From the NCBI GenBank assembly GCA_964016885.1, contig OZ024742.1, positions 87,544,001 through 87,608,000 on the forward strand: DNA of 64,000 nt. The letters run 5' to 3'. Position 1 is the stretch's first letter. Each line of letters starts with the position of its first letter. A model generated the notes under the pieces. The model worked only from the letters and a program-made list of their open reading frames with translations, was not told the origin of the DNA and searched no databases. Below, piece after piece: positions 3,530 to 56,435 of this stretch. Both the position numbers and the translations under genes were made by a program. The DNA comes from Eledone cirrhosa (Eukaryota).

Positions 3530-3720
3530 ATATAGAAGAGGTTCTACAGGACTAGAACTATTTCATTCGTGAGAAATCATCAGGGATTCCTGATGATTTC
3601 TCAAGGATAAAACAGTTCTAATCCTGTAGAAGTTCTTCTATATTAAAACGTTTATACTCTGCTATGTATTGAGTACCTTACTTACTGTTGTTACCTCCGA
3701 TTCAACCCAGAATAACACAT
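3530..3720. repeat. Spacerless foldback of a PLE-type 3' end carrying a hammerhead-like core (family A)
   Basis: About 3530-3584 is the reverse complement of about 3587-3644; the arms read CTGATGA-tttc..aat-GAAA-like. Same family as 7995-8622. Confidence 0.7.
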
Positions 3721-3734
3721 ATACATATATATAT

Positions 3735-3920
3735 AACGAAGGAAATGTGGTAGGAAGCAGATGGACCATAACGCACCAGAGTACTCAATACTTAGGGTAG
3801 TTGAGTGGGTAATAGGAACGAGTAGGACCCCGACGGCTAAGCTTAAGCCGTTTCGACGGCTACATCAGAATTAGCCGTCGAAACGGCTTGAGCTCAGCCG
3901 TCGGGATCCTACTCGCTCCT
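3735..3920. repeat. Foldback of a repeat 3' end (family B)
   Basis: About 3813-3862 is inverted to about 3870-3921; homologous to 14310-15155, 11270-11320 and 49977-50010. Confidence 0.7.
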
Positions 3921-5129
3921 ATATATATATATATATATATATATATATATATATATATATATATAAATATATATATGTAAAATGAGATTAATATTTATTT
4001 TTATTTATTTAAACATTATTTGAATCTTACTTAATCCACTTATCTCAATTATATATATATATATATATATATATATATATATATATATATATATATATAT
4101 ATATATATGCTCTGCCATCGGGTTCAAACATTTTCCTATATACATATGTATATATATATATATATATATATATATATATATATATATATATATATATATA
4201 TATATATATATATATATATATATATATATATATATATATATATATTATATATTATATTTAACTGTATTACATGTGTGTATTTCAAAGTGTAGCATTTATG
4301 CAATCCAGTCATACAATTTCATATTGCACTGACGTTGCAAACAGCTGGTGGCAATTGCGATTTACTATCATCACAACGATGGTTATCATGCCCGCCTCAG
4401 AATAACGTTATAAAATAAATGTCCCTTCCGGTTTCATAGTGTTAACAGGAATATAGGCAAATTCTTTCTAACTCTAATAGATAGGAATGTCAACCTCGGC
4501 TCTGGTTATTCGAACAGATTTTTATATATATCCTAAACCATTCGCAATAAATTTTAAATCACACTTTACCGGCAAACCACACCATTGTGCACTTAAAAAA
4601 CTGTTAACCCGCCTCCGTGACCAAGCATATAAAATTGAATCCGTTGCAAATTGAACAGATATATTTCGACCATAAAACAGCTACACATCCTTACACTTAC
4701 ATAAATATAAGCGGTTTTCACAGGCGTAGGAAACATTTCAATTCACATAGTGTATCGTGTATTATGTTTTATCGATACGTATTGTATATATACTCTAAAT
4801 CATCCAAAGTATAATATGTTGTTTGCTTTACTGTGAATCATCCACGATTTCTATCGGATATATGTCACCATTCAAATACAAGAGACAAAGCCTTCTGTGT
4901 TTGAAAAGAAACCACACACAAATCATTTCACAACTGACCTTTAATAAGTAAATGATTTTGTTCCAATTCACATCACAGAATCCAGAAACATGTAATGTTG
5001 TCGGTTCTTGTTACATTTATATGGTTTCTGCTTCCACCACCGATGGGATTGTATTAAACTGTTTTTAAGTAGATGGAATTCCTCTGTGAAATCGATGATA
5101 GCGTTTTGCACCTTTGCTTTAGAAAGAAT

Positions 5130-5263
5130 AATTGTTTCTACTTTTGGCACAAGGCCAGCAAATAACCAGTGCATTACTGGTACTTTATTTTATCTACCCC
5201 GTAAGGATGAAATGCAGAGTTAACCTCGACAGGATTTGAGCTCAGAATGGGAAGGGCCGTAAC
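5130..5263 (-). mobile_element. tRNA-derived SINE with a Meta-like central domain (5'-truncated)
   Basis: Minus strand reads ctgagctcaaatcc (B-box-like) then tttcatccttacggggtagataaaataaagtaccag; further copies at 41380, 41570, 46030 and 51295. Confidence 0.75.
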
Positions 5264-5741
5264 ATTAGAAAAAATAATGATTGATAGTAGTGTTTAGTGG
5301 AAACAAGACAAATCTCTTGGAACTATAGCCATAGGTTCTGTACAAAATTATCTTGGAAAATACTCATAAAAAGCATGCCCTAATAATCACAGAAATCTAT
5401 GATCATATGCTATTTTCTAAAGCAAAGCTATAACTGTTCATGCATTATATTATAAATGTATATAAACGTATTGTTGATATTAAATGTAGATATGTATAAA
5501 CGACCATAGTTTATTTTAGCCTAATATTGTGCAATAACGTTTTTAATTATTCTTATATATATATATGTGTATCATATGATATCCAATTATATTTATCACG
5601 TGAGTATTAGAAAAACAACTTTCAAAAGTTATAATTATCTTGTATACGTAATTCCCATAAATAGAAAAATAAATTAATAGATGAATTCCATGTTTTCTAG
5701 ATTGTTATCAAATTATATCCAATACACGTCTCTCTTTACAG

Positions 5742-55300: not shown

Positions 55301-55485
55301 GGAAATGTAATAGCTTGCTATGTCCATTTGGATGAATTTGTGGTTTTTCTTATCATCTATATTTGAACCAATCAATCACTTCATCGGTGTCCTTCCACAA
55401 GTTCAGTTTATACCTCAATTTCAGAATATACAATATATTGTAAAACACATTCTTCGATTTATTCATTGAACCTTATTTAACCTTT
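52400..55485 (-). mobile_element. Naiad-like PLE, degenerate RT and GIY-YIG with a long 3' UTR
   Basis: FIQMDIASYYISI, SAQVTDLVG, GGLYRDA, CNCRNKPDCP, LVYKC..YIGAT..FKSRF..H, CNLCTKE; several frameshifts. Degenerate hammerhead (CTGATGA, minus) at about 52445-52520. Confidence 0.82.
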
Positions 55486-55794
55486 AAATATATATATATA
55501 TATATATATATATGTATATATATATATATGTATATATATATATATATATATATATATATATATATATATATATATATATATATATATATATATATATATA
55601 TATATATATACATATATATATATATATATATATATATATATATATATATATATATATATATATATATATATATATATATATATATATATATATATATATA
55701 TATATATATATATATATATATATATATATGTGTGTATATATATATATATATATATCAGGTGTGAGAAAAACCACAGACCCTCCATCACAACTCA

Positions 55795-55832
55795 CCTTTT
55801 GAAAAGCAGAAGAACTGCGAAACCGGTAGAGG
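55795..55832 (+). ncRNA. Minimal type I hammerhead-like motif with a U3-A8 core variant (family I)
   Basis: cctt-TTGAAAA-gcag-aagaa-ctgc-GAAA-ccgg-TA-gagg; palindromic ACCGGT stem III as in PLE hammerheads. Confidence 0.6.
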
Positions 55833-56115
55833 AACCAAATAAATATATATATTTTTTTTAAAAATAAGACTTCAGTTGCATTTTCGATTTCATCCCTTTT
55901 TCTTTATATATATATATATATATATATATATATATATATATATATATATATATATATATATATATATATATATATATATATATATATATATATATATATA
56001 TATATATATATATATATATATATAAATATATATATATATATATAAATATATATATATATATATACATATACATATACATATATACATTTATACACATACA
56101 TATATATATATATCT

Positions 56116-56435
56116 TTGTATATGTATAATAAAGCCAAAACAATGCAGGTATGGACATAGAATAAAGAATGCAAATGCAAATGATATTGTTGACAATTAG
56201 TATTTTACCTTAGATTTATTTAAATGTCCTTAAATTTCTAGATAATATCTTTTCATCGCAGGGAAGTAAAGCGGTTAAAGAAGTGTTCTAAATAGCTTGC
56301 CAAGTCATGCTGACAGGAAATGGTATAGAGTATCTGTATTATATCTAATATCAAAGAGTTAAGGTTAGGTGGATAAATGCATTCTTTATTCTATGTCCAT
56401 ACCTGCATTGTTTTGGCTTTATTATACATATACAG
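56116..56435. repeat. Family K PLE 3' end (minus) with a short inverted terminal copy (plus)
   Basis: 56116-56376 is the reverse complement of about 45117-45342; 56384-56435 repeats the terminus on +. Confidence 0.8.

Follow-up and report, generated by a model that had tools for sequence, protein, structure and literature searches.

Inverted pairs of Penelope-like element ends at (TA)n in Eledone cirrhosa: a counted pairing of one tailed with one untailed end

Why do the 3' ends of retroelements lie in inverted pairs, both facing outward into (TA)n, at site after site of one short stretch of DNA? The question is raised by 64,000 nucleotides (nt) from Eledone cirrhosa (assembly GCA_964016885.1, contig OZ024742.1, positions 87,544,001 to 87,608,000 of the forward strand), here called the window, which has 33% G+C and dense (TA)n runs and sits in the introns of a gene with Sushi-repeat exons, in a genome of 3.0 Gb. 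A first-pass annotation had listed ten such sites as insertions of Penelope-like elements (PLEs) with the left arm on the minus and the right arm on the plus strand. This shared polarity holds at all ten sites, each of which has TA-rich sequence on its outer flanks, and nine of the ten are single head-to-head PLE insertions flanked by (TA)n. They do not all come from unrelated families, as had been supposed, but from seven, of which three (F1, F14 and FB) were listed twice each. The families are named by their window copies: F1 (3530, 7995), F14 (3735, 14310), F6 (6947), FA (8730), FB (9775, 43383), FP (34233) and FH (56116). Head-to-head, or tail-out, means that the 3' ends point outward.

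Copies from the whole genome stop at one of two positions before a TA run, either at an untailed end (S) or at S plus a tail (L), and the 5' end of an arm is given as a negative distance from the S site. The tail is present in all seven families and measures 33-89 nt. In full-length copies it is the start of the next tandem unit (L217 of FP; FB); a pseudo-long terminal repeat (pseudo-LTR) from such a partial tandem was found in L217 (FP), in L130 and L131 (FH) and in L188, L191, L204, L208 and L209 (FB). The L tail is the one already known from PLEs. In five of the seven families the RNA immediately beyond the S site has the letters TAT or TATA, which would let it base-pair with a TA primer on either of the strands.

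Two samples were counted. The anchored sample consists of the best-scoring copies from seven genome searches (30 loci each for six families, 39 of 40 matches for FP), with 116 regions widened to 9.9 kb; after subtraction of 12 rows that were the second arm or a segmental duplicate of another row, 207 of 219 rows were left, six of them the window's own copies. The unselected sample comprises 146 loci (1.24 Mb) scanned for families other than the one each was fetched for, in regions that adjoin other repeats and were not drawn at random from the genome. One L and one S end were combined in 95 of the 101 anchored pairs (93 two-piece pairs plus L131 and L239), a share that independent choice of ends would bring to 0.5 at most (binomial P ~5e-22 against 0.5), and in 40 of the 43 unselected pairs (P ~2e-9). 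Neither arm is a simple mirror of the other, because the S arm extends beyond the L arm by over 20 nt on the 5' side in 43 of the 93 two-piece L/S pairs, and seven L arms consist of the tail only; the L arm reaches further in another 43, and in 7 the two lie within 20 nt.

The frequency of pairs depends on the sample. An abutting inverted arm, upstream on the minus strand, accompanies 101 of the 207 anchored copies (97 of 201 without those of the window), a figure that is raised by the anchoring on arms and lowered by narrow loci and nested insertions, which conceal some pairs. By family the anchored pairs amount to 13/27 for F14, 7/29 for F1, 14/25 for FA, 21/29 for FH, 17/29 for FB, 24/39 for FP and 5/29 for F6, the last being a floor since the F6 loci were counted at their original width and not in regions 6 kb wider. 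Five further F1 loci have a distant partner, always S paired with L. The tail-in arrangement, an inverted same-family end at most 100 nt downstream, was met in 3 of 207 anchored copies (L011, L090, L224). In the unselected scan 72 arms were single, 43 abutting pairs were tail-out and 3 pairs lay tail-in across a TA run. The count of 43 against 3 confirms the tail-out excess that the first-pass annotation expected, but its view of the foldback as the usual product was overstated because single arms outnumber pairs: the foldback is a common but minority product, and roughly four in ten insertions are two-armed. Of 29 other loci of a control short interspersed nuclear element (SINE), 1 had a neighbour abutting it head-to-head. 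S-ended single arms are frequent in FP (11 of 39 loci), and short F14 pairs (minis) of similar size are abundant, with 22 in the 1.24 Mb and several subfamilies.

That the two arms of a pair belong together is indicated by their variants. In each of the seven families the arms of a pair have minority variants in common and are less divergent from each other than shuffled pairs are; out of 2000 shuffles none matched the observed sharing for F14, FH, F1, FA and FP, one did for F6 and nine for FB. Paired F14 arms agree at five diagnostic sites across at least six haplotypes, and the divergence within pairs ranges from 2 to 25%. As to the junctions, not one of the 101 recurs as a 40-mer apart from a single microsatellite match, and L065/L066 (G000:C8 ~43979000 and 44004000) are a segmental duplication, about 25 kb apart, of a single FA pair together with its flanks. 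The breakpoints of unselected minis vary as well. Since arms share variants and junctions are unique, the pairs were made at insertion and are not mobile units resembling retrozymes or miniature inverted-repeat transposable elements (MITEs), as had been suggested; identical internal junctions at different loci, the sign by which such units would be known, are absent among the 101.

The junctions are otherwise heterogeneous. Short templated insertions occur at some (L063, L232, L246) and near-perfect palindromes at few; many minis are nearly symmetric, and in most long pairs the breakpoints are very unequal, for example -65/-1747 or -72/-2230. Head-to-head joins between different families without TA between them (L033, L088, L123, L052 and L074, one of them with a SINE 3' end) could be due to the priming of two different RNAs or to later deletion. 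Many short arms share a family-specific 5' limit. In F14 it lies between -62 and -37 for 60 of 64 unselected arms, with the mode at -62, and pile-ups in the unselected copies of other families lie at -67 (F1), -74 (FB) and -186 (FA). Each limit coincides with the A of a motif that resembles an initiator; in F1 a TATA-like word lies about 30 nt upstream. Because these limits lie upstream of the predicted cleavage sites, the templates appear to have been uncleaved. Of 23 short FP arms, 8 have their end between -352 and -394, a stretch that the long arm crosses. A comparison of F14 minis with long F14 copies is confounded, the long copies having been picked by their likeness to one query.

The arms in the window were found by self-comparison, and their extents by mapping to the family references. 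Some of the ends listed previously need extension to include the tails (8642-9755, 34234-39087, 56113-56484). One FB pair had been overlooked. The parts are given below; hammerhead cores are predicted motifs.

3530..3586, minus strand: F1 S arm, 5' end at -64 from the S site, canonical hammerhead core at 3583
3587..3720, plus strand: F1 L arm, 5' end at -65, tail of about 71 nt
3736..3862, minus strand: F14 L arm, from -47 to the end of the tail
3866..3920, plus strand: F14 S arm, from -53 to S
6948..7406, minus strand: F6 S arm, an old copy
7407..7770, plus strand: F6 L arm, hammerhead core at 7634
7994..8484, minus strand: F1 L arm, 5' end at -411
8490..8622, plus strand: F1 S arm, 5' end at -132
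8642..9127, minus strand: FA L arm, 89-nt tail, canonical hammerhead at 8829
9128..9755, plus strand: FA S arm, canonical hammerhead at 9659
9772..10143, minus strand: S-ended FB copy, older, probably a separate insertion, variant hammerhead core at 9840
12101..12556, plus strand: S-ended FB copy, young, probably a separate insertion, variant hammerhead core at 12492
14309..14719, minus strand: F14 S arm, 5' end at -407
14723..15154, plus strand: F14 L arm, 5' end at -349, tail of about 78 nt, variant hammerhead core at 14972
34234..35487, minus strand: FP S arm, an inverted 3' end of 1.2 kb
35488..39087, plus strand: FP L arm, a 5'-truncated element with 3' untranslated region and 33-nt tail
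35618..37972, plus strand: FP open frame of 784 codons, reverse transcriptase with C-terminal GIY-YIG endonuclease
41764..41907: the overlooked FB pair, a tail-only L arm on the minus and an S arm (-74) on the plus strand
43384..43480, minus strand: FB L arm, nearly tail only
43481..43537, plus strand: FB S arm, 5' end at -59
56113..56377, minus strand: FH S arm, 5' end at -266
56378..56484, plus strand: FH L arm, 5' end at -62, tail of about 44 nt

The FB arms at 43384-43537 are a true same-family pair whose overlap is minimal. The tenth site, 9775-12560, was not borne out as one insertion. It probably represents two FB insertions of different age, as its sequence suggests, because both ends are untailed, the arms are only 86% alike, and one is young and the other old (each arm was compared with its own best other copy, which is 99% alike for the right and 93% for the left arm); several other elements and TA runs lie between them.

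That the arms are PLE 3' ends and not terminal inverted repeats of DNA transposons was confirmed for five families. In F14, FB, FH, F6 and FP a PLE frame on the sense strand, upstream of the same ends, fixes the polarity independently, and these ends belong to elements with reverse transcriptase and GIY-YIG endonuclease; in F1 and FA the polarity is set by the sense-strand hammerhead. The FP frame matches Pfam RVT_1 (E 2e-5, under the curated cutoff) and GIY-YIG (E 9e-6), and its translation carries a CX2-5CxxC linker between reverse transcriptase and endonuclease, a Neptune/Nematis-type trait by motif comparison. FB has a 666-codon frame with a weak full-length match to FP (E 6e-5) and no Pfam match, and F14, FH and F6 are tied to PLE frames by tblastn. 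The translations of FB and F14 show a DKT motif, a CxCX5C linker and, at the C terminus, a motif of GIY-YIG type. No reading frame was found within the fetched loci of F1 and FA, where long AT-rich and microsatellite 3' regions interrupt the trace. The notion of a separate retrozyme- or MITE-like class that moves as a unit is not supported, one reason being that coding copies with the same ends exist in five of the seven families.

The ends had also been described as hammerhead-bearing, which the predictions bear out only in part. On the family majority sequences a hammerhead descriptor was passed by FA, F1 and F6 with a canonical core, by FB with U4 changed to A and by F14 with G8 changed to A, at a rate of 0-1 per 200 for shuffled sequences; type I hammerheads are thus predicted in the PLE ends of five of the seven families. 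FH has a core-like motif with a 6-bp helix II but failed the descriptor, and FP, the family of 34233-39050, has no hammerhead on the sense strand by that descriptor. An Rfam scan of the window gave no hammerhead at E<=1, only below-threshold matches of microRNA type, and thermodynamic folds of seven single hammerhead copies were no better than those of shuffles (z +0.73 to -1.56). Hammerhead-like cores are also present in repeat ends that run into TA at 10180-10660, 10752-11179, 14073-14290, 42860-43284 and 58564-58728 of the window, apparently from more families.

Other features of the window are broken, 5'-truncated PLE copies with coding remnants at 32049-33222 (plus), 43989-45351 (plus) and 53835-54570 (minus), remnants of other reverse-transcriptase elements at 1503-2820 and 17733-18158 (with Pfam RVT_1 at 2374-2760), and a host Sushi-repeat exon at 15105-15485 (Pfam E 4e-13), to which 56787-56905 is probably similar, by eye. 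Several single arms occur in the window too, as do tail-in pairs and TA-centred mirrors (10369-10752/13627-13980, 11829-12061/12554-12785, 6185-6560, 45824-46136, 48099-48656). The last three, like L090, are mirror duplications of arbitrary sequence around a TA run; seven more were seen among 2088 TA arrays (1.15 Mb), and in one mirror the 5' half of a tRNA-like SINE is copied at 99% across the run. These mirrors are probably DNA-level fold-backs at (TA)n, distinct from the PLE pairs. Two further arrangements were seen elsewhere. In L196/L197 (G000:C4 ~189287600-189297400) an FB L and an FB S arm with the same 5' break and upstream TA pattern lie tail-in about 9 kb apart, possibly one event split by rearrangement, and in L059/L060 (G000:C2 ~126060300-126075900) an F1 S and an F1 L arm lie tail-out about 15 kb apart, and microsatellites with nested insertions separate them.

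How then do the pairs arise? We consider it probable that a single RNA serves for priming on both target strands, at two sites, S and L, and that the two complementary DNAs (cDNAs) are end-joined afterwards. The PLE protein would nick both target strands in (TA)n, and reverse transcription would start twice on one RNA, once at the untailed S and once at the tailed L site; the two starts would be coupled within one event, plausibly by a protein dimer. The cDNAs would then stop independently and be joined by host end-joining, and where one side aborts a single arm would be left. In very short pairs priming may take place at the upstream pseudo-LTR with run-off at the RNA 5' end, which would explain both their fixed 5' limit and their MITE-like look. 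In vitro, a PLE cuts and extends both target strands and has two internal start sites with the tail between them (PMC11167929), and Penelope of Drosophila virilis starts transcription inside the pseudo-LTR from an internal promoter (PMC2377424). The first-pass annotation had proposed that a self-complementary (TA)n target is primed on both strands. Priming on both strands is the best explanation, but the (TA)n target is not required, because the layout has been published also for PLEs with ordinary target-site duplications. A wider proposal is more doubtful, and we advance it only tentatively: that PLEs of at least two clades integrate by obligately coupled double priming, with one ribonucleoprotein using the tailed site on one of the target strands and the untailed site on its counterpart, that run-off at the transcription start mass-produces hairpin elements of 150-400 bp de novo that mimic MITEs, and that single arms are maybe re-transcribed from the internal promoter.

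Several points weigh against double priming. For these families the mechanism is read from the genome sequence only, and the in vitro study saw no difference of start site between the strands and did not report coupling (PMC11167929). Six of the 101 pairs break the L/S rule (L003 and L130 are S/S; L119, L204, L025 and L226 are L/L), four of them being compound or continuing into the next unit, and four assignments were corrected by hand (L214, L234, L242 and L124, the left arm of which has about 900 nt inserted between S and tail). The match to an initiator was noticed post hoc and the motif is short; in F1, F6 and FB the limit is also the 5' edge of the hammerhead, so that a pause of the reverse transcriptase is an alternative. 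Microhomology of at least 2 nt at junctions without apparent insertion (15 of 26, against ~17% of random joins) comes from an unreliable test and was left unused, 62 of 88 junctions having been scored as insertions partly since the reference is a single copy. The shared variants and the symmetric mini-junctions would also fit a fold-back followed by trimming.

In this last alternative, which we think rather unlikely, the L-primed cDNA folds back to make the second arm and the endonuclease trims one arm at S during resolution. It would yield one L and one S end, shared variants, the 43:43 split of the longer arm and the nearly symmetric junctions of many minis, and PMC8557442 ascribes the tail to endonuclease-mediated resolution. 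However, in 43 of 93 pairs the trimming would have to sever the long arm, which is linked to the target, and attach it to TA again; fold-back cannot produce cross-family joins, and a random fold-back point does not predict the clustered FP short arms past which the long arm runs; S-ended single arms are common, and both ends are start sites in vitro (PMC11167929). Self-priming on the antisense transcript, proposed for rotifer PLEs from junction palindromes (PMC3846280), is an improbable source of the head-to-head form here: it agrees with the few near-perfect palindromes, but the breakpoints of most long pairs are far from equal, an arm made of tail only has no sequence in common with its partner, and the L/S rule is given no reason. 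A further reading takes the short pairs for a non-autonomous class, like MITEs or retrozymes, of which whole units are copied; it is slightly harder still to credit, and in its whole-unit form largely refuted, since junctions do not recur, mini breakpoints vary, the ends are asymmetric and the units inverted rather than tandem; in its favour are the abundance, similar size and subfamilies of F14 minis, the missing coding partner for F1 and FA in the fetched loci and the internal promoter of D. virilis Penelope, from which single arms could be re-transcribed (PMC2377424).

Chance must be considered too, as TA runs attract nested insertions throughout the window and 9775-12560 looks like one instance. 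Yet independent insertions into one TA run are very improbable as the origin of pairs that abut without TA between them, share variants and obey the L/S rule, with tail-in pairs rare (3 against 43) and the control SINE at 1 of 29. Least credible is an assembly artefact or DNA-level inverted duplication at TA repeats. The existence of TA-centred mirrors speaks for it (the seven among 2088 arrays, and L090), but they are symmetric and may extend into the flanks, whereas PLE pairs are TA-flanked and end at element ends; an artefact is disfavoured because the pairs are asymmetric by the tail and their arms differ by 2-25%. Raw short reads lend weak support: in three runs from another study, searched for the FA end and coming mostly from related copies 90-95% alike, thousands of loose ends run into TA at S, and several opposite-strand joints occur, with orientation not given.

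How PLEs build inverted structures is named as an open question in published papers, as far as their accessible parts go. The L/S pairing, the shared variants and the unique junctions narrow it to two models, double priming and fold-back with trimming, which the existing in vitro system could separate. Moreover, short PLE pairs can be mis-annotated as MITEs or microRNA hairpins, and they put many hairpin-forming sequences in introns.

MITEs are copied as a unit, with symmetric terminal inverted repeats around an internal sequence that is fixed, and share their ends with a DNA transposon. This identity was rejected for the pairs, the ends of which differ by the tail in 95 of 101, whose junctions do not recur, and which in five families end as reverse transcriptase/GIY-YIG elements do. 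In L1 twin priming both target strands prime cDNA and an internal inversion results, the inverted piece being a non-overlapping upstream one; here one and the same 3' segment is copied in the two arms, from two fixed sites. The head-to-head layout, the one-sided tail, hammerheads at the ends and (TA)n targeting are already published, so that the first-pass annotation was right in calling inverted pseudo-LTRs and their hammerheads known PLE traits, but the foldback it added is in print as well. The head-to-head form is the most frequent inverted form in PMC3846280, with a tail optional on one inverted pseudo-LTR and self-priming as its proposed origin, and inverted terminal repeats of variable size are the commonest form in D. 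virilis (PMC2377424); the accessible part of PMC13282606 holds nothing on the layout. Worth keeping from the present analysis are the fixed 5' limits and the rule of L/S pairing with its counts. Searches of open-access literature brought up no study that counts the pairing of ends across a genome, though supplements (e.g. of PMC8557442 and PMC11167929) may bear on it.

The nearest relatives are the canonical endonuclease-bearing PLEs (Craig et al. 2021, PMC8557442; Arkhipova et al. 2013, PMC3846280; Schostak et al. 2008, PMC2377424), which show the same head-to-head polarity with a variable inverted arm, often a tail at one end, partial tandems and microsatellite targets. In contrast to them, tails are 71-89 nt in five of our seven families and not 30-40, the pairing is counted (95/101 L/S) and the short arms share a fixed 5' limit. 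FB and F14 share the DKT motif, the CxCX5C linker, the terminal GIY-YIG-type motif and (TA)n insertion with the Hydra clade, to which they are likened by its published description; hammerheads of that clade are canonical (PMC8557442), while the FB and F14 cores are variant. Minimal PLE hammerheads of Schistosoma also occur as opposite-strand pairs 100-700 bp apart and in short non-coding copies (Cervera and de la Pena 2014, PMC4209133); the ends and junctions, which the accessible part of that paper does not analyse, are analysed here. Non-LTR retrozymes are likewise non-coding, hammerhead-bearing and related to pseudo-LTRs, but they are tandem units each with a ribozyme (bioRxiv 10.64898/2026.07.22.740005), and an identity with them was rejected for inverted arms with unique junctions. 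The Poseidon element PAc belongs to another clade and host, and coupling was not reported for it, but in vitro it has two internal start sites bounding the tail, cuts and extends both strands, uses uncleaved RNA as template and is predicted to form a dimer (Frangieh et al. 2024, PMC11167929).

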